DNA of 64,000 nt, from assembly GCA_029856145.1 (NCBI GenBank), contig JAHQWK010000020.1, positions 64,001 through 128,000 on the forward strand, written 5' to 3'. The notes under the pieces were generated by a model. It searched no databases and had not been told where the DNA came from. It saw only the letters and a list, made by a program, of their open reading frames with translations. Shown here in pieces: positions 6,889 through 18,383 of the stretch. The position numbers and the translations under genes are program-made. The stretch comes from Promethearchaeia archaeon (GTDB lineage: Archaea > Asgardarchaeota > Lokiarchaeia > Sigyniarchaeales > SOKP01). The first letter of the stretch is position 1, and each line of letters starts with the position of its first letter.

Positions 6889-9489
6889 ATGGCACAAGGA
6901 ACAATTTATCCAAAAAGGTACAATTTTAAAGCGGTTCAAGAAAAGTGGATAAAATATTGGGATGAAAATAAGATATATGCATTTAATAAAGACCGAACAG
7001 ATGAAATTTTTACTATTGATACACCACCTCCCTTTGTAAGTGGAGTTTTACATATAGGACAATATCTAAATTACGCTTGGATTGATTTTGTAGCAAGGTA
7101 CCGTCGAATGAGAGAACAAAATGTATATTTTCCTCAAGGATGGGATTGTCATGGATTGCCTGTTGAGTTAGCAGTCACAAAGAATTATGGAATTTCTAAA
7201 GATGATCGAGAAAACTTCTTAGAGAAATGTAGAGAATGGGTAGAGAATAACATTGAAAATATGACAAAGCAATTGAATGATTTAGGGTATTCGACTGATT
7301 GGGAATATACTTATAGAACGATGAATGATGACTACAAACGAAAAGTTCAACTTTCACTCTTAGAATTCTATGAAAAAGGTATGCTTTATAGAGATAAATT
7401 TCCAACTCATTTCTGTGTAAATTGTGAAACATCTGTTGCAAAAGCAGAAGTAGGTTATCAAGAAGAGTTAGGAAAATTATGGTACATAAAATTACCAATT
7501 GTAGAGAGAGAAAATGAGTTTATTACTATTGCTACAACACGTCCTGAATACATGGAAGCTTGTGTTGCCGTAGTGATTCATCCAAATGATGAACGTTATT
7601 ACGACATTTCTGCTGCTAAAATAGAAATTCCATTCACGAATAGAACCGTTCGCGTTTATATGGATCCTTCAATTGATATGAATTTTGGTACTGGAGTTGT
7701 TTATGTCTGTACATATGGAGATGAAATGGACATTAAATGGAAAATTGAATATGACTTGGATGAGATCCAAATCTTTACTGAAGATGGTCATATGAATGAA
7801 AATTCTGTATATCAAGGTTTAACCATTATGGAAGCACGAGAGCAAATAGTTAAAGATCTTGATAAAAAAGGATTAATTGAAAAAATTGAAGACTATGAGC
7901 ATAATTTAATAATTCATTCAGAACGGTCATCTTGTAGAAAGCCAATAGAATATTTACCAGTCTATCAGTGGTTTATAAATGTGAAGGATTTTACACAGGA
8001 AATTATTGAATCTGGAGAAATTATGAAATGGTATCCTGAAAAACAAAAACAAAGATTAATAGATTGGGCAGAAGGATTAGATTGGAACTGGGTTATTTCA
8101 CGTCAGCGCTTTTTTGGTACCCCTATTCCATTTTGGTATTGCAAGGATTGCGGTGAAATTATCCCACCTAAAAGAGAGGATTTACCATTAAATCCTGTGA
8201 AAATTTCACCACCTATTAACCAGTGTTTAAAATGTAAAAGTAAAAATATCATAGGTGAAAACGATGTCTGTGATTGTTGGATTGATTCTAGTCTTACTCC
8301 CCTAGAAATATCAAAATGGACAGAAGATAATGAATTTTTTAAAAGAGCTTATATGGATGCTAAAGTTCATCGATCACAGGGTTATGAAATCATCCGTACT
8401 TGGTTGTTTTACACCTTATTTCGATGTAAAATATTAACTGGAAAAGCTCCTTTTTATGAAGCAATGATTAATGGAATGGTTGCTGGCCCAGATGGAAGAC
8501 ATATGTCAAAGAGTCTCGGGAACTATATTGCACCAGAGGAAGTGATGCCTGAATTTGGTTCTGATGCCATAAGATATTGGACAGCCATGGGTTCTTTAGG
8601 TGACGATTATCCGTTTGAATTTACTTGGATAAATCAACAAACTAAACAACCTGTTTCAGATAATTTTATTCTGAAAGAAAAACAAAAACTTCCAGAAGAT
8701 AAATTTAATAAGAAATACAGGAGAAAGTTTGAACAATTAATTGGTGCTTCAAGATTTTTAACTAAAATTTGGAATGCTTACAGATTTTTATTTTTAAATA
8801 TGAATAAGATTAAGATTGATAACATTAATGTTAATCCTAATGAACTATCAGCTATAGACAGTTATTTCTTTTCAGAATTTAACAAAAATTTAGATAAAAT
8901 TACAAAATATTTTGAGGAATATAATTGGCATGGAGCTATGATGATTTTACGTACTTTTTTCTGGAATGAGATTTGCGATAATTATGTTGAAGCAATAAAG
9001 CATAAATTTTATTCTAAAAATCAAGAAACGCGAGAGATTTCCTTAAAGAATGCATTAAACCTTTTTTACAAATTATTAACCATATCATCTGTTATAATGC
9101 CATTTATTTCAGAAGAAATTTACTCAATTCTCTATAAACAATTTAAACATCTAAAATCTGTTCATATAGCGAAATGGCCATTGCACTATGAAACGATTTC
9201 AGAAGATTCAGCTAATAATGGAAAATTAATTATTGAAATAATTAAAGTTCTAAGGATGCAAAAATCAAAGCTTCAAATACCTTTAAACCAAAGTATAAGA
9301 AAAGTCATTTTGATTTCAGATACAAATCAACTGAAAAAGATTGATAAATTAAAAAAAGATATTAAACAAACTCTTAGAATAGATAATTTAGAAATAATTG
9401 AGAAATCTCAGGAAAATAATATTAAAGAAAAATCAGATTTAAAACAAATTATTGAGGATTTGAATATCACAGTCTATTTTTTTAAGTAA
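6889..9489 (+). CDS. valS: valyl-tRNA synthetase (archaeal type)
   Basis: IDTPPP, HIGQ (HIGH), GWDCHGLP, IATTRPE, WVISRQR, HMSKS (KMSKS). Confidence 0.93.
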   Translation: MAQGTIYPKRYNFKAVQEKWIKYWDENKIYAFNKDRTDEIFTIDTPPPFVSGVLHIGQYLNYAWIDFVARYRRMREQNVYFPQGWDCHGLPVELAVTKNYGISKDDRENFLEKCREWVENNIENMTKQLNDLGYSTDWEYTYRTMNDDYKRKVQLSLLEFYEKGMLYRDKFPTHFCVNCETSVAKAEVGYQEELGKLWYIKLPIVERENEFITIATTRPEYMEACVAVVIHPNDERYYDISAAKIEIPFTNRTVRVYMDPSIDMNFGTGVVYVCTYGDEMDIKWKIEYDLDEIQIFTEDGHMNENSVYQGLTIMEAREQIVKDLDKKGLIEKIEDYEHNLIIHSERSSCRKPIEYLPVYQWFINVKDFTQEIIESGEIMKWYPEKQKQRLIDWAEGLDWNWVISRQRFFGTPIPFWYCKDCGEIIPPKREDLPLNPVKISPPINQCLKCKSKNIIGENDVCDCWIDSSLTPLEISKWTEDNEFFKRAYMDAKVHRSQGYEIIRTWLFYTLFRCKILTGKAPFYEAMINGMVAGPDGRHMSKSLGNYIAPEEVMPEFGSDAIRYWTAMGSLGDDYPFEFTWINQQTKQPVSDNFILKEKQKLPEDKFNKKYRRKFEQLIGASRFLTKIWNAYRFLFLNMNKIKIDNINVNPNELSAIDSYFFSEFNKNLDKITKYFEEYNWHGAMMILRTFFWNEICDNYVEAIKHKFYSKNQETREISLKNALNLFYKLLTISSVIMPFISEEIYSILYKQFKHLKSVHIAKWPLHYETISEDSANNGKLIIEIIKVLRMQKSKLQIPLNQSIRKVILISDTNQLKKIDKLKKDIKQTLRIDNLEIIEKSQENNIKEKSDLKQIIEDLNITVYFFK

Positions 9490-9510: not shown

Positions 9511-10320
9511 TTATCCTTCTCCTTCTTCATTTCCGTGTAGAGATTCAGTTTCAGTAGAGAGTTCATTATCATCTGGGGTTTCACTACTCGATACTTCTTC
9601 AATTCCTAATTGTGTAACCATAGCACGTTTCAAATCAGTTTTATTTTTTGGTAACCCAAACATATCTGCATATTTATCAGTGGTGGTTAGTTCGTGGGAT
9701 CTTCCCTTTTTTACAGCATTTATAAACCCATTATCTATGAGATATTTTACATGTTCATATGCGCCAGTACCTCTCAATTTAATAACCATTGATTTCAAAA
9801 CTGGCTGCTTCAAAGCAATAACTGTTAAAGTTCTCAAATATCTTTCTGCTATTGCTCCTCCTTTAGCAAATTTAGAAACTTTTTCAGTATATTCTGGTTT
9901 AATTTGCATTTGATATCTATCTCCAATTTGTGCAATGACAAGAGCAGTAGAGCGTTCTAAATAATCAAAAGCTACTTCATTTACTAATGCTTCCACTTCT
10001 TTCTTAGGAAGTTCCAATTTTGTCGATATTTCTTCTATGGTTAGGGGTCTTCCAGCAGCGTACAAAGAAGCTTCAATTAAATTTCGATGGAAAATCCTTA
10101 CTTGGTTTTTTAATAATTCTTCATCAAGAATTGTGGTTTCCGAAGTGTCTTCAATCAAATTGGTTTGTAAATCATCTTCTATATCTTCGGCTTCCTCAAA
10201 TTCTTCTATTAATGGAGTTTCTGATTTTAAACTAGATTCTCCACTTAAATTAATTTCTTCTATTTTTTCTAAATCTTCTTCTTGTTTATCATCAAGAGCA
10301 TTTTCGTGATTTTCTTCCAA
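9511..10320 (-). CDS. scpB: SMC-Scp complex subunit ScpB (kite) with acidic N- and C-terminal tails
   Basis: LIEASLYAAGRPL, LRTLTVIALKQP, TTDKYADMFGL; GGTGA SD before TTG; operon with smc and scpA. Confidence 0.92.
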   Translation of the reverse strand: MEENHENALDDKQEEDLEKIEEINLSGESSLKSETPLIEEFEEAEDIEDDLQTNLIEDTSETTILDEELLKNQVRIFHRNLIEASLYAAGRPLTIEEISTKLELPKKEVEALVNEVAFDYLERSTALVIAQIGDRYQMQIKPEYTEKVSKFAKGGAIAERYLRTLTVIALKQPVLKSMVIKLRGTGAYEHVKYLIDNGFINAVKKGRSHELTTTDKYADMFGLPKNKTDLKRAMVTQLGIEEVSSSETPDDNELSTETESLHGNEEGEG

Positions 10321-10361
10321 ATTATCACCATATTTTATAATTAATCCAATAAATTTAGTTT

Positions 10362-11363
10362 TTATTTAACATTGACACTAAAATCTTGAAAATCTTCAAC
10401 TTGAGACAGAGTTAATTTATTCCCAGTTGATAGGAACATTAATGCTAGAAACATACGGACAAAAGAAAATATCCGCCCAATACCACTTTTCTCTTCATTT
10501 TTAATAATATCTGCCAATTCGTAAAATGTAGGTTCTTTATTATTTAGATTAATCGTAGCCTTAATTCGATTGTACCATGATTCATGCAGTTCTTCTACTG
10601 TTTGTTCTCTTCCGCTTATATGTTTAAGAAGTTCTTTAGGGAGTTGTGCTTTAGATTTCATTTGAATCCTTTGTTGTTTTATTTCTTCTTTTCTCATTCG
10701 TCTTCTTCTTAGTTTTTCTTTATTCTGCATAACTTCTATAATAGCAGATCTCATAGCATCAAATAATTCATCTTTTGTGGCTATTTGCATTTTAGGTTGA
10801 ATTGGTTGAGGTAATGCTTTTGGAATGGTCCTACCATGTGCTTGCCTGAATCTCTCCAACTCTTCTCTTTTTTGAATTTGTTCCTCTTCTCTAATTATAC
10901 TTGAAATTTTATAATGATGTAAAACTGCAGAAGTTTTAAGCGCAATTCCCGAAATTTTATAATTTATCAAGTCTTCGTGGAGCATTTTATCGAAAAATTC
11001 ATCAACTAATTTTGCTAAATCATAAAACGCAATTTCTGATTCTTTTGCTATTTCCGAATCTAATAGACTCGAAAATGGTGGTTTTTGCCAGAATTTTAAT
11101 TCAAGCTTTTCTTTCCTCAATAAAGCAAGATCTTCCTCATCATCAAATCCAGCAACTAGTTCTTCTTCTACTTCTTCAATTTCTTGAGATCTATCTGTAA
11201 ATTCAGGATGGGATACGACCTCTTGAAGTAAATCAATTATTTCTTTTTTCTTAGATTTAGAAGGTATTTTTATATTATTTTTCGAGGCAAATTCCTTGAG
11301 TTGTTTAACAGTCCAATCATTAAAATTATATTTTTTAGTAGAATTTTGTTCATTTTCTGATAT
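10362..11363 (-). CDS. scpA: kleisin ScpA with N-terminal SAP/Rho-N-like extension (probable ATA start at 11363; track ORF starts at internal TTG 11120)
   Basis: Kleisin N motif YDLAKLVDEF...YKISGIALKTSAVLHHYK and C motif FVRMFLALMFL...LSQVEDFQD; frame open 81 codons upstream of 11120 to an ATA with GGTGA 6 nt upstream and an in-frame TGA beyond. Confidence 0.85.
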   Translation of the reverse strand: MSENEQNSTKKYNFNDWTVKQLKEFASKNNIKIPSKSKKKEIIDLLQEVVSHPEFTDRSQEIEEVEEELVAGFDDEEDLALLRKEKLELKFWQKPPFSSLLDSEIAKESEIAFYDLAKLVDEFFDKMLHEDLINYKISGIALKTSAVLHHYKISSIIREEEQIQKREELERFRQAHGRTIPKALPQPIQPKMQIATKDELFDAMRSAIIEVMQNKEKLRRRRMRKEEIKQQRIQMKSKAQLPKELLKHISGREQTVEELHESWYNRIKATINLNNKEPTFYELADIIKNEEKSGIGRIFSFVRMFLALMFLSTGNKLTLSQVEDFQDFSVNVK

Positions 11364-11390
11364 ACAATATCACCATTTTATATAATTTAA

Positions 11391-14300
11391 TTATTCTGTA
11401 ATCGTTGGTTCGACATCTTCCAGTTCAAGAAGTCTCTTGGCTTCCTCTTCTAAATCAACACTAAAAATATCTGTTATTCCACTTTGTTGCATTGATACGC
11501 CGTATATTCTATCTGAATTCACAATATTTTCTTCTCTGTGAGATATAACCATAAATTGAGCCTGCGAAGCGAATTCTTTTATGACCATTGAAACACGGTG
11601 AACGTTTGGACCATCGAGCGCAGCATCAATCTCATCCATTACGTAAAATGGAGCAGGATAAAATTCTTGAACTGCAAAAATGAAAGATAATGCTACAAGC
11701 GTTTTTTCCCCACCACTTAAAATTTCTAGTGAACTAATTTTCTTACCTCTTGGTCTTGCTTCGATAGAAATACCCCCTTCAAAAGGTTTATCTGGCCTAT
11801 CTAAGATCATTTTTGCAGAACCCCCTGGAGATAATTTCTGAAAAATCCTTGAAAATTCCCGATTAATTTCATGATAAGCTTTCATGAAAGTGCGAGTTTT
11901 TTCTAACTCAATTTTATCAATCGCATCAAGAATTGACTTTCTTTCTCTTTGAATTGTCTGTCGCCTCATATCTATTTCATCAAATCTTTCTTTGACTGTG
12001 TCATATTGTTGAATTGCCTTCAAATTCACGGGTTCAAGAGTTTTTTTCTTTTTTGTTAATTCCACGATATCCGACTGTAGTTCTGCTTCAATAAGATCAT
12101 CAGTTACTGGCGGCAATGAACCGTATTCTTTAGAACGCTGAAATAAGGTTTCTATTTGGTCAGTACACATTATCTTTTTGGACTCATAATTATTTATTTT
12201 AGAATTTTCCATAGAAAGATCTGATTTTAAATCTGTTATAACTTTCTGATATTGCTTTTGCTTTTTCCATGATTCATCTTTTTCTTGTATATACTTGTCA
12301 ATCTCTTTTTGTTTTTCATCTTTCTTCGCATTTTCATTAGCTAAATCTTCTTTCAATATTTCTAAGTCTTTTGTTATTGATTCAACTTGTTCTTCAGTAT
12401 CCTTTATATCTTGACCCAATCCTATTATCTTTTGTTCTCTCTCTTTATTTTTATTTAATTCATTTAATTTCCCTTGAGATCTTTGTAAATCTTTATTTAA
12501 TTTATTTAATTTTTTCTGAGCTGCTTTTTGAGATTCTAACTCTTGAGATTTTTCATCTCTTAAAGTATTTATAACCTGTTGCTTTTGATCTACATTTTTT
12601 TGAATTTCTTCAACTTGGGAATTTAATCCTTGCATATCATCTTGACAAGTCTTAATTCTATTATTAGCATCTACGTTCTCTTTTTTAATATCTTCAATAG
12701 TGGTGATAATCCTCATCACATTTTGAAGTGCTCTTAGACGGTCCATTGTATCTTCAAGGATTTTGTTTTCAGCATCTATCTGTTTTCGCAAATTCTCGGT
12801 TATTTCCCAGAAATTTTCTTTTCGAATAAGAAGCTCATCAATATTCTTTTGTAGTGAATTTTGTTCAACTTGAATATTTTTTATGTTTTCTTCTGTTTTG
12901 ACTATTATGTTTTTCTTTTCTTCAATAAGAAAATTCAATTTTTCTACATTACCATCAATCTCTACGATATTATCAAATAAATTCGTAATTCCGTGTAATT
13001 CTTGTAACTTTTCTCTTAAATTTTCTAATTCCTTTTGCTTTTTATCAATATCATCTTGAATTTTAGATATATTATCCCAATAGGTATCCTTAAGTTCTTT
13101 CAATTTAATTATCTCAGAATCCAAGTTATTGACTTCTAATTGTCTATTATCGATAATTTCCTTTCTTTCATTTATTTCTTCTTCTGCTTTTTTAATTCTT
13201 TCATTTAATTCAGATTTTCTTTTACCAATTTCTTCAAGTCTTTTATTATAAGATGAAAGGTTTTCAGAAAAATGCTTTACTTGGATTCTAGCCTCAGTTA
13301 ATTGTTGCTCATTTTTATTAAAATCATCTGTTTGAGATTTAATGCTTGCTGAGATCTCTTCCAATTGTTTATATAATTCTTGGCTTTTAGACATAGTTAA
13401 TTTTCTTAAAGAGAGATATACATTTTCAAGAATTTCCATTAGGTCTTGAACAAAATTATCAAATCTAATCGTCGAAGATTGGACTTCAACATCAGCGGAT
13501 TCTTTTACTTTTTCGATTAATTGACTAATTGTATCATCAGCATTATCTGTAAATAACTTTAAAGTTTGCATAATAGAACTAAACATATTTGTCATTTCAG
13601 TAGGTTTTTCTGTATCGGCACCAATGTCCTCAACTGATTTCATAATATCAATTATATCTAGAATAAATTTTTTGAAATCTTCTGCAGAGGTTTCAATTGC
13701 TTCTGCATTTGATTGTTGTATATTACTTTTAATAGATTCTACTGAAATGTTAATATTCTGGGTAAGCATGTTTAAAATTTGAAGAATTCCGGTAATATCT
13801 TTTGTATTTTTATCATATTCTTCTTCAGAAACTTCAATTTTCTTAAGGAGATTTTCTCGTTCTTGTGAAAGATCTTGTAACCGTCTTTGAATATTTTCTT
13901 TTCTGGATTCAGATTTTTCTGATTCACTTGTGACTTTTGAAAGAGTTTTACTTAAGGAATCAATTTGTAGTTCTAATTTATTCTTTTCTCGATCTAATTT
14001 TGTTAATTCTTTTGTAAGGATTTTTAATTCTGTATTGATATTATCAATCTTTGCATTGTTATCATTGATTTCAGATTCAAATGAATAATTCTTCATTTTC
14101 ATTAATTCTAAGTCTTGTTCATTTTTCCTATAGATTGAGTTTTCTTGCTTTAATTTCACTTTTAGATCGTTTAAATCTTTGTTAATATCCTCATTTTCTT
14201 TCAATAATTCTTTTACAGCTTTTTCAGCATCTCTACCTTCACTTAAATCAGTAATTTTCTTCTCGATAGAAATTTTCTTTTCATTTAATTGTTGGATATT

Positions 14301-15842
14301 CGCTTGATTCATTTTAATTTCAGTATTTAATGATGATAAAGAAGCTTGAAAATCTGTCAATTTTGAATTTAATTGATTTTTTACTGCTTGAATACTATTT
14401 ATATTGTTTTCTAAATCTTTTTGACTTTGATTTTCTTTAGATATTTTGGCATTTAAGTCATTAATTCGTTTTCTAATTTCTGATTCTGTCTTTTTTGTTG
14501 CTTCAATGGCTTCATCAATACTTTCGGTATCTTTTTTCAATTTTTCTAGCTCAGTTTCTAATTTTTGCTTCTTTTCCTCATTCTTTTTTATAGTTCCTCT
14601 GAGCATCTTAATTTGAGCGTTATTAGATGAAATATTTTGTTGTATTTTGGAGATTTCTGCTTTAAAAAGAGATTTTTCATCATCAGTATTTTTTATTTGA
14701 AGATCCAAATCAGCTTGGTTTTGCTGTCTTTTTTCAATTTCTTTTTTGGCCTCTTCTATATGATTCTCATAATCTAAAATTTCATTTGAAACACTTTCTA
14801 TTAATGAATCAAAAGTTTGTCCCTCTTCAAGCTTCATTTGTTTACTTTCTAAAGTTCCAATTTCATTAACTAATTTTTCGATTGATTTTTGAGCTAAATT
14901 TAGTGTAGTTTGACTTGATGAAATTTGTGTCTTTACTTGGGTAATATTTTCAGTAATTTGCTCTCTCTCTTTTTCTTTCTCGGTAATTGTTTTTTGAATA
15001 TTATCCATAACAAGTGATTCTTGTTTTAAGATATCTTCTTGTCTATTGATTTTTTCTTGTAATTCTTCAATGATTTTTAAAGAATTTTCGATTTTTCTTT
15101 CTAAATCATCTTCCTCTTGCCGTAACTTTGAAATTTTTAAAGCAATCAACTGAGAATTTAAAAAATTTATTTGATCATCTAATTCCTTCCAAGCTAAAGC
15201 ATCGTTTTTCTCCTTTTCCACTTTTTTCAACTGAGAAGAAACTTCTTTAAAGATCGCTTCAAATTGTCCTAAATCTCTTTCTGCTTTTTCCAATTCTTTT
15301 AACGTAGCATCTTTCATTTCATCATATTTTTGAAGTCCGATTAATTCTTCAATAAATCTTCTACGATCTTCTGCATTCATATGAGTTAATTCCACAATTT
15401 TTCCTTGAAGGACAAATTGATTACTTCCATCTGGATCGATATTAGCCGCTGCTAACGCATTAAGAATTTGTTGGCGAGTAGTTTTTTTTCCATTCATTTT
15501 ATAGCCACCACCACCACCTCTCTTGATAGTTCGAGTAATTTCAAAATCAATGGTGCCTCCTGGAAAAGCATTTTCAGAATTATCGAAATATAGTGTGACA
15601 GAAGCTCTTTGAGAGGGATTTTTTCCTCTTGAACCCGCGAAGATGAGATCTTCAAGACTTTTTGCTCTCATAGTTTTCTTACTTAACCTACCTAACGCGA
15701 AACAAAGAGCATCTATAATATTAGACTTACCTGCCCCATTTGGTCCAACGATGCACGTAAATCCACTAGAAAGTCGAATTGTAACAGTTCTATCTCCAAA
15801 ACTTTTAAAACCACTCATTGAAATTTTTTTAATATAAGTCAA
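11391..15842 (-). CDS. smc: SMC chromosome segregation ATPase, extra-long, non-canonical central domain
   Basis: GFKSF, Walker A GPNGAGKSN, Q-loop VLQGKI, PVNLKAI, signature LSGGEKT, Walker B/D-loop MDEIDAALD, ISHR; long coiled coils. Confidence 0.95.
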   Translation of the reverse strand: MTYIKKISMSGFKSFGDRTVTIRLSSGFTCIVGPNGAGKSNIIDALCFALGRLSKKTMRAKSLEDLIFAGSRGKNPSQRASVTLYFDNSENAFPGGTIDFEITRTIKRGGGGGYKMNGKKTTRQQILNALAAANIDPDGSNQFVLQGKIVELTHMNAEDRRRFIEELIGLQKYDEMKDATLKELEKAERDLGQFEAIFKEVSSQLKKVEKEKNDALAWKELDDQINFLNSQLIALKISKLRQEEDDLERKIENSLKIIEELQEKINRQEDILKQESLVMDNIQKTITEKEKEREQITENITQVKTQISSSQTTLNLAQKSIEKLVNEIGTLESKQMKLEEGQTFDSLIESVSNEILDYENHIEEAKKEIEKRQQNQADLDLQIKNTDDEKSLFKAEISKIQQNISSNNAQIKMLRGTIKKNEEKKQKLETELEKLKKDTESIDEAIEATKKTESEIRKRINDLNAKISKENQSQKDLENNINSIQAVKNQLNSKLTDFQASLSSLNTEIKMNQANIQQLNEKKISIEKKITDLSEGRDAEKAVKELLKENEDINKDLNDLKVKLKQENSIYRKNEQDLELMKMKNYSFESEINDNNAKIDNINTELKILTKELTKLDREKNKLELQIDSLSKTLSKVTSESEKSESRKENIQRRLQDLSQERENLLKKIEVSEEEYDKNTKDITGILQILNMLTQNINISVESIKSNIQQSNAEAIETSAEDFKKFILDIIDIMKSVEDIGADTEKPTEMTNMFSSIMQTLKLFTDNADDTISQLIEKVKESADVEVQSSTIRFDNFVQDLMEILENVYLSLRKLTMSKSQELYKQLEEISASIKSQTDDFNKNEQQLTEARIQVKHFSENLSSYNKRLEEIGKRKSELNERIKKAEEEINERKEIIDNRQLEVNNLDSEIIKLKELKDTYWDNISKIQDDIDKKQKELENLREKLQELHGITNLFDNIVEIDGNVEKLNFLIEEKKNIIVKTEENIKNIQVEQNSLQKNIDELLIRKENFWEITENLRKQIDAENKILEDTMDRLRALQNVMRIITTIEDIKKENVDANNRIKTCQDDMQGLNSQVEEIQKNVDQKQQVINTLRDEKSQELESQKAAQKKLNKLNKDLQRSQGKLNELNKNKEREQKIIGLGQDIKDTEEQVESITKDLEILKEDLANENAKKDEKQKEIDKYIQEKDESWKKQKQYQKVITDLKSDLSMENSKINNYESKKIMCTDQIETLFQRSKEYGSLPPVTDDLIEAELQSDIVELTKKKKTLEPVNLKAIQQYDTVKERFDEIDMRRQTIQRERKSILDAIDKIELEKTRTFMKAYHEINREFSRIFQKLSPGGSAKMILDRPDKPFEGGISIEARPRGKKISSLEILSGGEKTLVALSFIFAVQEFYPAPFYVMDEIDAALDGPNVHRVSMVIKEFASQAQFMVISHREENIVNSDRIYGVSMQQSGITDIFSVDLEEEAKRLLELEDVEPTITE

Positions 15843-16018
15843 AATTTATCTCCATTTCTACTCTTCATTATTAAAAAAATAGTGTGATTACACCTATAAA
15901 TATTATAATATACGATATAAAAAAAAACTAATTTTCGTTTTCCAGTTTTAAAAATGATACCCAGTTAATTTTTTCTACTCAAACTAAAAATTATCAGATT
16001 TTACATTAAATATTTTTA

Positions 16019-17209
16019 TTACTGATTAAAAATCGTATCAATTATAACCTTTATTTGTTTGGGGTTTATTATTGTAAAGAAAAAATCACAATTTATATTG
16101 TTAAAACCTTTATAAGCATTGTTTTTATAATTAGTTCTTTTTGAGGGTTTAATAATCCCCATATTTAACATCTCTTCAATTAGACTATAAAACTCATTAT
16201 TATTTTTTATACATTCTAAAGATTCACAAGAAAGTTCATAGCATTCCATTAATTCATTAAAGGAAATGTAATAATTCATTTTGCTTACAAAAAAATTCGA
16301 AAGATTATCTAAGAATACAACAGTTAATATATCCTCTTCCGAAAGATAATTTATTATGCTAAATTCATCAGAGATTTGAAATGTATCAAATTCATTCTGG
16401 CAAATTTCTAATAACTCAAAATTACAAGCCCCTTTATTATTTTTTATTGTTGGATATATATCTCGAAGAATTTCAATTCCTTTTCCGGGAACAGGGACAT
16501 ATTCTTCACAAATTAAATCTGTTATATATCTAATTAAGTCTTTATCAATTTCATGTGAAAAACTTAATAGAACTCTTTGTTTAAGAATAGAATAAAGCTC
16601 ATGATATGAGAAAAAGTCTAATTTATGTTTAAAATCAAATTCAGAAAGTAAATCCATTGTACCTGGTTTTAAAAATTTATTTACTGTAGAAATTAAAGTA
16701 ATATTTGTTTCTTTACTAAATTGTAAGAATTTATGAAATATTTCAGGCTCTAAATATTCAATATTATTAAAAATAAAGAACAAATGAGAATCAGTTTTAT
16801 TACAAATAAATTTAAAAGTATTCCATAAGTGGGCAATGTTTGAATTTAAGATGGTTCGATAATCGAAGTTAAAATTAGAAAAGCTTGTTAATTCATTTAA
16901 TAGTGAAAAAATTAATTCTTCAATTTCTTTTTCTTTGCAATCTACACAAACTTTATTAATTTTAAAACAATCTTTGTTTTGCATTAAAAGATCGTTTATT
17001 ACTTTATTTACTATTACTTTTTTCCCAATCCCATTCATTCCGTGATAAAGAACGTTAAGGCAAAACTCGTCAGAAATCGAATCATTTAAAATCGAAAGTA
17101 AAGAATTTTCTTCTTTTTTTCTGTATAATAAGCGTGGTGGGATATAATTTGGGTCAAAGAGAGCTTTGGGGCCTATATAATTTTTATTTACATTGGATTT
17201 TATTATCAA
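16019..17209 (-). CDS. Cdc6/Orc1-like AAA+ protein with degenerate ATPase motifs
   Basis: N-terminal LFDPNYIPPRLLYRKKE typical of Cdc6; Walker A-like GMNGIGKK; Walker B position FIFNNIE; FSYHELYSILKQRV lid motif; C-terminal winged-helix-like region. Confidence 0.75.
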   Translation of the reverse strand: MIIKSNVNKNYIGPKALFDPNYIPPRLLYRKKEENSLLSILNDSISDEFCLNVLYHGMNGIGKKVIVNKVINDLLMQNKDCFKINKVCVDCKEKEIEELIFSLLNELTSFSNFNFDYRTILNSNIAHLWNTFKFICNKTDSHLFFIFNNIEYLEPEIFHKFLQFSKETNITLISTVNKFLKPGTMDLLSEFDFKHKLDFFSYHELYSILKQRVLLSFSHEIDKDLIRYITDLICEEYVPVPGKGIEILRDIYPTIKNNKGACNFELLEICQNEFDTFQISDEFSIINYLSEEDILTVVFLDNLSNFFVSKMNYYISFNELMECYELSCESLECIKNNNEFYSLIEEMLNMGIIKPSKRTNYKNNAYKGFNNINCDFFFTIINPKQIKVIIDTIFNQ

Positions 17210-17426: not shown

Positions 17427-18383
17427 CTAATCAAAACTTTCTAATAAATTTTTTAAATTTTCTGCTAACAATGGTAAATATTCATAGGATTTAATTTTTA
17501 CTTTCTTATTTAAACAAAGCGCGACCAAATATAGTCTTGCATCTCCTATATCTAATTTTCTTAGAAAAATAATTCCTTCTTTTTGAAATTCTGAATGTTT
17601 CTCTGGAAATTCTACATTTGTTACAATATCAATTGTATTTATATCCCATTCTTCTAGTTTTTCTAATGCTTGAGTTAGCCTCGGAGCTATAGACTCGCAA
17701 ATTTCCTGATAAGCTTGATTTGTGCTTCTGCTAGCAATTATAAAACAATTCTGATCCAATAGCAGCGTAGAGCTATTATAAGTCTTGCCCATATAATCTT
17801 TCAGTAAGGTTTGAAACATTTCAGATTTGTGAGTAGCATAAAAAGCACCATCAGAGAAAGCCTTCAATAAACTTGGTTCATCATATATTGAAGTTTTTAA
17901 GATAGAAAATTTAACATCTTTAATAATAGATGAAATTTCATGATCTAAAGATTTGATGTTATTAACAATATTTTTATTATTTTTAATATCCGGATCACAT
18001 TTATGTAGTAAGATCAAGAGTTGAAAATTATCAGGGTGTGATTCTGAGGTAATATTTATTATATCTTTAAGAAAAACTAAGGCTTCTTCAAATTTTTTAG
18101 GTGCTTGGATATCTATAACATAAAAAATTGATTGCATTTCCGTAAAATACTTACTTTTTTCACCTATATATATTTTTCTATAACTCTTTTGACCACCTAA
18201 ATCCCAACGGACTATTGTAGTACCTAATAATGAGTTTGTATGAAGAGTTCTTTTTGCCTTTATAGTTGGTTTAACTGTAGTTAGTAAACTAAATTTCTTA
18301 TCTAATATTAATAAAATTGATGTCTTTCCACCACTTTCTAAACCACAGAAAAGTATTTTTTTATACTCTTTTGATTCGCTCAT
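17427..18383 (-). CDS. small GTPase (Rag/Arf-like, Asgard type) with C-terminal roadblock/longin-like extension
   Basis: G1 GLESGGKTS, G2 PT, G3 WDLGGQ, G4 HKCD, G5 TSI; about 135-aa extra C-terminal domain (STLLLDQNCFIIAS). Confidence 0.85.
   Translation of the reverse strand: MSESKEYKKILFCGLESGGKTSILLILDKKFSLLTTVKPTIKAKRTLHTNSLLGTTIVRWDLGGQKSYRKIYIGEKSKYFTEMQSIFYVIDIQAPKKFEEALVFLKDIINITSESHPDNFQLLILLHKCDPDIKNNKNIVNNIKSLDHEISSIIKDVKFSILKTSIYDEPSLLKAFSDGAFYATHKSEMFQTLLKDYMGKTYNSSTLLLDQNCFIIASRSTNQAYQEICESIAPRLTQALEKLEEWDINTIDIVTNVEFPEKHSEFQKEGIIFLRKLDIGDARLYLVALCLNKKVKIKSYEYLPLLAENLKNLLESFD

Follow-up and report, generated by a model that had tools for sequence, protein, structure and literature searches.

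Can an SMC complex dispense with its hinge? The hinge is a defining domain of SMC proteins; it is held to be necessary for their dimerisation and has been proposed as the site at which DNA is bound or enters during loading and loop extrusion. The question is raised by a locus at positions 9511-17209 of a 64,000-nt stretch (positions 64,001-128,000) of contig JAHQWK010000020.1, or C20 (hereafter the window) from a Promethearchaeia archaeon, whose genome is 3.55 Mb long and 97% complete; public homologues are labelled Promethearchaeota or Lokiarchaeia. The original prediction, made from the sequence letters, had described four co-oriented genes here, each deviating from its canonical form. The coordinates of the open reading frames (ORFs) confirmed this description: all four lie on the minus strand and encode, in order of transcription, a degenerate Orc1/Cdc6 paralogue, a long SMC protein without a hinge, an ScpA-type kleisin and an ScpB kite (Table 1). 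Only 27 nt separate smc from scpA and 41 nt scpA from scpB, and these three genes form a tight operon. We consider it rather probable that the locus encodes a lineage-specific chromosome-organising complex of the Smc-ScpA-ScpB type, a paralogue of canonical condensin, in which Smc would pair through a new apex module and the kleisin would bridge the heads.

The long Smc and the absence of its hinge

The heads of the long Smc are intact. Walker A (GPNGAGKS), the signature motif (LSGGEKT) and Walker B (VMDEIDAALD) were all present, and the protein scored 144 bits with SMC_N, 608.5 bits with TIGR02168 (above the cut-off of 567) and 626 bits with TIGR02169 (below the cut-off of 729); Rad50 models gave less than 100 bits and RecN gave 31 bits. 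The intact head motifs, together with the partner proteins, argue for an ATP-driven DNA-organising complex like Smc-ScpAB. The longer arms that had been predicted were also found: each arm strand comprises ~570 residues versus ~350 in the canonical Loki Smc (~1.6-fold), which would make the arms roughly 80 nm long instead of 50 nm. In an AlphaFold2 (AF2) model of residues 600-920, built on a 20-sequence alignment, the coiled-coil arm folded back at the centre, and the arm segments had a predicted local distance difference test (pLDDT) score above 90.

To the Pfam hinge model (SMC_hinge, PF06470), neither the whole protein (E<=1) nor residues 660-860 alone (E<=10) gave a match, and a Pfam search of the isolated centre returned coiled-coil noise only. 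When the central alignment of the long SMCs was compared with an alignment of canonical Asgard hinges by HHalign, the probability was 0.2%; as a control, the divergent second SMC of the same genome matched the same hinge alignment at 94.8% over 177 columns. No hidden Markov model match to a hinge thus appeared that would contradict the predicted hinge-less SMC; the hinge is absent, which is more than divergence.

Its place is taken by an apex module made of two homologous helical units of ~59 aa (residues 680-738 and 751-809), with a short loop (~742-750) between them. HHalign matched the two units at 98.1% probability (E about 1e-13), and in the AF2 model the region was an all-helical, plain hairpin of helices 601-741 and 749-920. 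Between families, identity was 33-37% in the apex versus 20-26% in the adjacent arms, and the hydrophobic fraction was 0.41-0.44 versus 0.28-0.30. The apex contains few charged residues and is net acidic. Below, g1 denotes the genus of the window, f1 its family, f2 the sister family, and f4 and f26 further families. The f2 sequences have Gly and Pro at equivalent positions in both apex repeats, suggesting that the tip may be kinked or bundled instead of forming a straight hairpin. In the complex that we propose, two Smc proteins would join through this module, probably as a helical bundle like those of RecN tips or beside the Rad50 hook, and the kleisin, as it does in Smc-ScpAB, would link one head at its neck to the second head at its cap. 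Being acidic, the apex probably makes no contact with DNA.

Long coiled coils with hinge-less tips are shared with RecN, Rad50/SbcC, archaeal ASRP and arcadin-4, and the tips of RecN and Rad50 pair through helical contacts. Since the known hinge-less coiled-coil tips of the SMC superfamily belong to Rad50, SbcC and RecN, and since the genome also encodes a second SMC, 1153 aa long and with a hinge, the long Smc might have shifted to Rad50/RecN-like repair or tethering and left chromosome organisation to the second protein. We regard such a shift as very unlikely. Head scores are far higher for Smc than for any of these hinge-less proteins. The protein has no CxxC motif and no cysteine between residues 48 and 1070, and therefore no Rad50-type zinc hook near its centre. 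Its partners are ScpA and ScpB, not Mre11; RecN, Rad50/SbcC, ASRP and arcadin-4 work without a kleisin and kite. Of the two SMCs, moreover, it is the second that diverges, scoring 193 bits on the SMC equivalogs, and it probably belongs to the SMC5/6-related class known from Asgard archaea (bioRxiv 10.1101/2024.01.07.573240).

An Smc-ScpAB-like complex paired at the apex has also to be weighed against a different use of the apex. A search with the apex profile against 1.84 billion representative proteins returned 44 proteins, which were long SMCs or their fragments and one headless family of ~920-1180 aa whose N-terminus bears the module, frequently as a pair of matched stretches. The module can therefore work outside an SMC protein, and in f2 its headless carrier is encoded within a conserved operon. 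On this evidence the apex could be no homodimeriser: it would dock other proteins or build higher-order assemblies, and no closed two-Smc ring would form. The Smc could then act as a scaffold or rod-like tether, or could pair only via heads and kleisin. We find this alternative improbable, as g1 has no headless homologue (the window's own genome gave a single match), a homotypic helical module is still the simplest way of pairing two arms, and all other parts of the ring-forming Smc-ScpAB are kept.

The f2 headless protein is ~1025-1041 aa long and has no Pfam match; an apex-like module lies at residues 73-232 and a weaker one at 340-460. Its gene belongs to a conserved cluster of four genes, one of which encodes a JAB/MPN-like protein.

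Distribution and paralogy of the long Smc

The long Smc (~1475-1514 aa) is conserved through f1 and f2. It was found in every g1 genome with an assembled copy; sequence identity is 75-90% among g1 members and 43% in f2. The apex module or long SMC was present in 60 of 68 f1 genomes and in all seven f2 genomes sampled; among 226 other genomes of the phylum, it occurred in only three, as stray or doubtful cases. In f4, the SMC of the long clade (1299 aa) is without one segment of ~90-97 alignment columns on each strand.

A tree of head domains separated the long forms (one clade, support 100) from the canonical Loki Smcs (another, support 98); the deeper nodes, including the place of the long clade among Asgard canonical SMCs, did not resolve. 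Within the long clade, f4 branches first and then f2 and f1, an order that indicates vertical inheritance. By these sequence comparisons, the long Smc is an old, order-wide and monophyletic paralogue of canonical Smc that was inherited vertically. A recent decay of the hinge of a canonical Smc in place was considered and is ruled out by the monophyly of the long clade and by its coexistence with hinge-bearing Smc. The original prediction had proposed a remodelled SMC-kleisin-kite complex. The altered set of proteins is real; what did not stand is the implied alteration of the canonical complex, as in relatives the set exists as a paralogue beside canonical Smc.

This coexistence is plain in f2 genomes, which have three SMCs. 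One of them is a canonical Smc of 1200-1207 aa whose hinge scores strongly (106-116 bits), and after it comes a short ScpB (196 aa). Within f1, genera g13 and g18 and some members of g16 have a strong-hinge canonical Smc. No such protein turned up in g1 (0 of 24), g12, g14, g15 or g17 among genomes with a completeness of at least 90% (the genomes behind this patchiness are G079, G166, G174, G180, G183, G212 and G215). Such patchy retention points to repeated loss of the hinge-bearing protein, with the hinge-less paralogue kept. In the window's genome, ScpA and ScpB are single-copy and both are encoded at this locus; in g1, the long Smc thus appears as the sole available partner of ScpAB and their assembly as the only ScpAB-type complex left.

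The second SMC of the window's genome, on contig C9, has a hinge of 27-32 bits. Two comparative papers on archaeal SMC evolution describe two SMC complexes, sometimes three, in Asgard and TACK archaea (Yoshinaga and Inagaki, 2021, PMC8665677; bioRxiv 10.1101/2024.01.07.573240). The C9 protein, divergent and hinge-bearing, fits the SMC5/6-related archaeal complex among them and is probably of this type. The window's complex, unlike the SMC5/6-related one, lies on the canonical condensin/cohesin-related side and has an ScpB-type kite. In the text searched, PMC8665677 and bioRxiv 10.1101/2024.01.07.573240 do not mention a hinge-less form, and we found no published description of a hinge-less Asgard SMC in literature on hinge-less SMC, on Asgard SMC, hinge and kleisin, or on HeH and Asgard. 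The C9 gene is flanked by ORFs of 416, 218 and 171 aa without Pfam matches, which could be its kleisin and kites.

Compared with prokaryotic condensin Smc-ScpAB (Bacillus subtilis, Pyrococcus; TIGR02168/TIGR02169; PDB 4i99, 5xg3, 6ivh), the window's system shares complete head motifs, antiparallel arms, an ScpA with N-domain and C-terminal winged helix, an ScpB kite and the gene order smc-scpA-scpB. It differs in that its SMC has no hinge, a duplicated helical apex and ~1.6 times longer arms, in that its kleisin bears an N-terminal HeH and its ScpB an acidic N-terminal extension, and in being a paralogue found side by side with canonical Smc-ScpB in related genera. With the hinge replaced by an unrelated helical module, the arms lengthened, and heads, kleisin and kite kept, the system is a natural experiment on the role of the hinge. 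Some related genomes hold both forms and so allow a direct comparison of hinge-bearing and hinge-less Smc, and in several genera the hinge-less version outlived the canonical one. All of this lies within Asgard archaea and therefore bears on the origin of eukaryotic SMC complexes.

Two minor observations concern the smc gene itself. In one closed g1 genome, an in-frame TAA splits the long smc into parts of 878 and 529 aa; possible causes are a sequencing error, variation of the strain or decay to a pseudogene. Several g1 members also carry short ORFs or fragments, ~7-17 kb past the end of smc, that resemble the C-terminal 48-76 residues of the long Smc (85-90% identity); the window's genome has no copy of this fragment.

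Kleisin, ScpB and the Cdc6-like protein

The kleisin has both an ScpA N-domain and a C-terminal winged helix. A profile of seven kleisin orthologues matched the ScpA N-domain (6ivh_A, E 4.6e-6 over 96 positions) and, weakly, the C-terminal domains of ScpA/Scc1 (5xns_C, 4i99_C). When the AF2 model of the C-terminal domain was submitted to Foldseek, the top PDB entries were ScpA/Scc1 winged-helix domains (4i99_C, 5xg3_C, 1w1w_E and 6qpq), with template modelling (TM) scores of 0.6-0.8, a root-mean-square deviation of about 2.5 Å and weak E-values of 0.02-0.09.

At its N-terminus, the kleisin carries a helix-extension-helix (HeH; Ish1/Rho_N/SAP-like) domain and then an acidic linker. The domain matched PF10281 (Ish1) at 31.3 bits (cut-off 26.6; E 2.6e-7) and, more weakly and below the cut-offs, PF12949 and PF07498 (HeH, Rho_N). 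AF2 folded it as helix 19-28, an extended stretch and helix 39-50 (pLDDT 82-86). Every long Smc examined is accompanied by a kleisin with an N-terminal extension, and across genomes hinge loss, arm extension and the N-terminal extension of the kleisin do co-occur; in most lineages an acidic-tailed ScpB goes with them. The HeH fusion that had been predicted is present here and in most f1 genera (g1, g12, g16, g17 and g18), but it does not extend to all relatives: f2 and f26 have long Lys-rich tails, and f4 has a P/A/K-rich tail. In g13, a zinc-finger-like CPYCGKIFQRLSQHKC N-terminus (CPYC...HKC) replaces the HeH in the kleisin that accompanies the long Smc. The tail of Topo VI B was considered as a relative of the HeH and rejected, as neither a search of the 56-aa HeH against the whole genome (E<=1) nor a PF10281 search gave a match.

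The ORF list starts the kleisin at a TTG at 11120, and the frame is open for 81 further codons upstream, without an in-frame ATG, GTG or TTG before 11120; it is this upstream part that encodes the HeH. In 12 g1 members, a GGTGA is followed by six bases, an isoleucine codon (ATA, ATT or ATC) and then Ser-Glu/Asn; one of them has ATT-ATG. This conserved layout indicates that scpA begins at an isoleucine codon, a start that may lower the dosage of kleisin relative to Smc. A -1 frameshift from an out-of-frame ATG, via A_AAA_AAT upstream of the HeH, was rejected, since neither that ATG nor the slippery site is conserved; the layout of GGTGA, six nucleotides and ATH is.

The kite is a true ScpB, and its core is unambiguous: it scored 115.3 bits with PF04079 (cut-off 27.4) and 94.1 bits with TIGR00281 (cut-off 89.2). 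Around the core (residues 81-230) lie an N-terminal extension of 80 residues (1-80) with a net charge of -22, which bears out the predicted acidic ScpB, and an acidic C-terminal tail. Among members whose core start could be placed, acidic extensions of 78-178 aa with net charges of -19 to -47 occur in f1, f2 and f26; the f4 extension is P/A-rich. The ScpB beside canonical Loki Smc has 196-199 aa and no extension. In the proposed complex, the kleisin HeH, or in relatives the zinc-finger-like and Lys-rich tails, would provide a further DNA anchor close to the heads, which the acidic ScpB tail may mask or regulate. The original prediction that the extra kleisin domain could make up for DNA contact lost at the hinge is no more than consistent with the acidity of the apex and with the nucleic-acid-binding character of the extensions. 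The variable, DNA-binding-like kleisin extensions and the acidic ScpB tails suggest that DNA contacts may have moved toward the head module.

The Cdc6-like protein matched TIGR02928 weakly along most of its length, at 51.7 bits versus a cut-off of 181.3, and the predicted dead Cdc6 was borne out by its motifs: Walker A reads GIGKK, Walker B FNNIE and the sensor-2 region PGKG. GIGKK and FNNIE are invariant in 10 g1 members, at an overall protein identity of 69-84%. The Walker B acidic pair is lost in every f1 member checked, and the g13 member keeps GKT. Two genuine Orc1/Cdc6 genes, with GKT and DE, lie elsewhere in the genome. Like other degenerate Orc1/Cdc6 paralogues (non-catalytic ORC subunits and archaeal ones), the protein is of AAA+ ancestry, has lost the Walker B acidics and is under selection; unlike them, it is very divergent and has a conserved place upstream of smc, not at an origin. 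The cdc6-like gene adjoins the long smc in seven of eight f1 genera, lying directly upstream in g1, g12, g14, g15, g16 and g17 and within about 1.2 kb in g18, with one opposite-strand ORF between. In genera with conserved adjacency, its proteins are 43-57% identical to that of the window, and in g17, where scpA-scpB is on another contig, it still abuts smc. This adjacency is a conserved gene order in one family, suggestive but no proof of a common function.

Several findings weigh against the complex as we propose it. At the apex, the AF2 model is of moderate confidence (pLDDT 52-80), and no computed result shows dimerisation; a two-copy prediction of residues 645-875 with their alignment scored 0.01, which counts neither for nor against. 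The kleisin reached only 14.5 bits with PF02616 (cut-off 24.6), in its C-terminal part. Its extension differs by lineage and is not one conserved domain, so that it could be a generic disordered or basic tail without a common role; DNA binding by the HeH is suggested by its domain family only, and in f4 neither the kleisin nor the ScpB extension is clearly basic or acidic. As to the cdc6-like gene, 176 nt separate it from smc, in g13 it is unlinked to smc (30-40 kb away), and the closest homologues in f2 and f4 are encoded at other genomic sites, again unlinked. The origin-like site that had been predicted near the locus was not borne out: the gene is not flanked by origin-like repeats, only by AT-rich chance matches, and about 57 kb separate it from the nearest genuine orc1/cdc6 gene. 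A change in GC skew at ~10 kb was rejected as a sign of an origin, as it coincides with a change in gene orientation.

The same gene order raises the stronger claim that all four genes form one system and that the dead Cdc6 binds DNA and serves the hinge-less Smc as its dedicated loader or targeting factor, by analogy with ParB for bacterial Smc or with cohesin loading that depends on the pre-replication complex. Adjacency held across seven genera despite the divergence of the protein, its persistence in g17 although scpAB moved, and the purifying selection on degenerate motifs all speak for it. Yet the genes are unlinked in g13, f2 and f4, which also have the long Smc; the gap in the window is 176 nt; Pfam found no winged-helix domain in the Cdc6-like protein; no repeated binding sites lie nearby; and gene order alone is weak evidence of interaction. 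We hold this claim to be unlikely, and its extension, in which the dead paralogue would be a dedicated chromosomal loader and the kleisin HeH the DNA anchor, to be distinctly less probable. Were that extension true, replication-coupled cohesin loading, and with it the anchoring of DNA by kleisin-associated subunits, would have a forerunner here. For the apex-paired Smc-ScpAB-type complex that we prefer, the ATPase-dead paralogue could be a family-specific accessory, e.g. a targeting or loading factor, an assignment that we make tentatively and with more doubt than trust. As a conserved neighbour, it suggests a tie between relatives of replication initiators and SMC loading.

Feature coordinates and neighbouring genes

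Table 1. Positions of the genes, domains and related loci. Unprefixed coordinates are window positions; prefixed ones refer to other loci (L) or to genomes (G) and contigs (C).
Feature	Coordinates	Strand	Remark
Degenerate Orc1/Cdc6 paralogue, 396 aa	16019..17209	-	first in transcription order
Long hinge-less SMC, 1483 aa	11391..15842	-	second in transcription order; canonical ABC heads
Apex module, residues 680-835	13338..13805	-	replaces hinge
Shine-Dalgarno GGTGA, 6 nt and ATA start codon of scpA	11361..11374	-	ATA at 11363-11361
ScpA-type kleisin, 333 aa, ATA start	10362..11363	-	third in transcription order
HeH domain, then acidic linker	11220..11324	-	kleisin N-terminus
ScpB kite, 269 aa	9511..10320	-	fourth in transcription order
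scpA isoleucine-codon start in g1 members	L014-L024, L035
Zinc-finger-like kleisin, g13	L079:2433-3485	-
Headless apex-module protein, f2	L037:3997-7122; L038:3178-6255	-
Long smc with in-frame TAA (L019)	G005:C1:2197392-2201840		g1, closed genome
Smc C-terminal-like fragments	G007:C82:63522-63749; G017:C85:28392-28616; G003:C98:91086-91307; G011:C63:34964-35110		g1
Second SMC of the window's genome, 1153 aa	C9:162919-166380 (L012:5920-9381)	-	divergent, hinge-bearing
Class I aminoacyl-tRNA synthetase	6889-9489	+	downstream of the operon
Class I aminoacyl-tRNA synthetase in relatives	L025:4257-7001; L028:11594-14338; L035:13915-16662
Gtr1/RagA-type small GTPase	17427-18383	-	upstream of the cdc6-like gene

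The operon has distinct neighbours on its two sides. On the downstream side, a gene for a class I aminoacyl-tRNA synthetase converges on it; synthetases of this kind (866-915 aa) stand beside the long-Smc operon as a conserved feature of both f1 and f2. Directly upstream of the cdc6-like gene lies a gene for a Gtr1/RagA-type small GTPase, a eukaryote-like signature protein.

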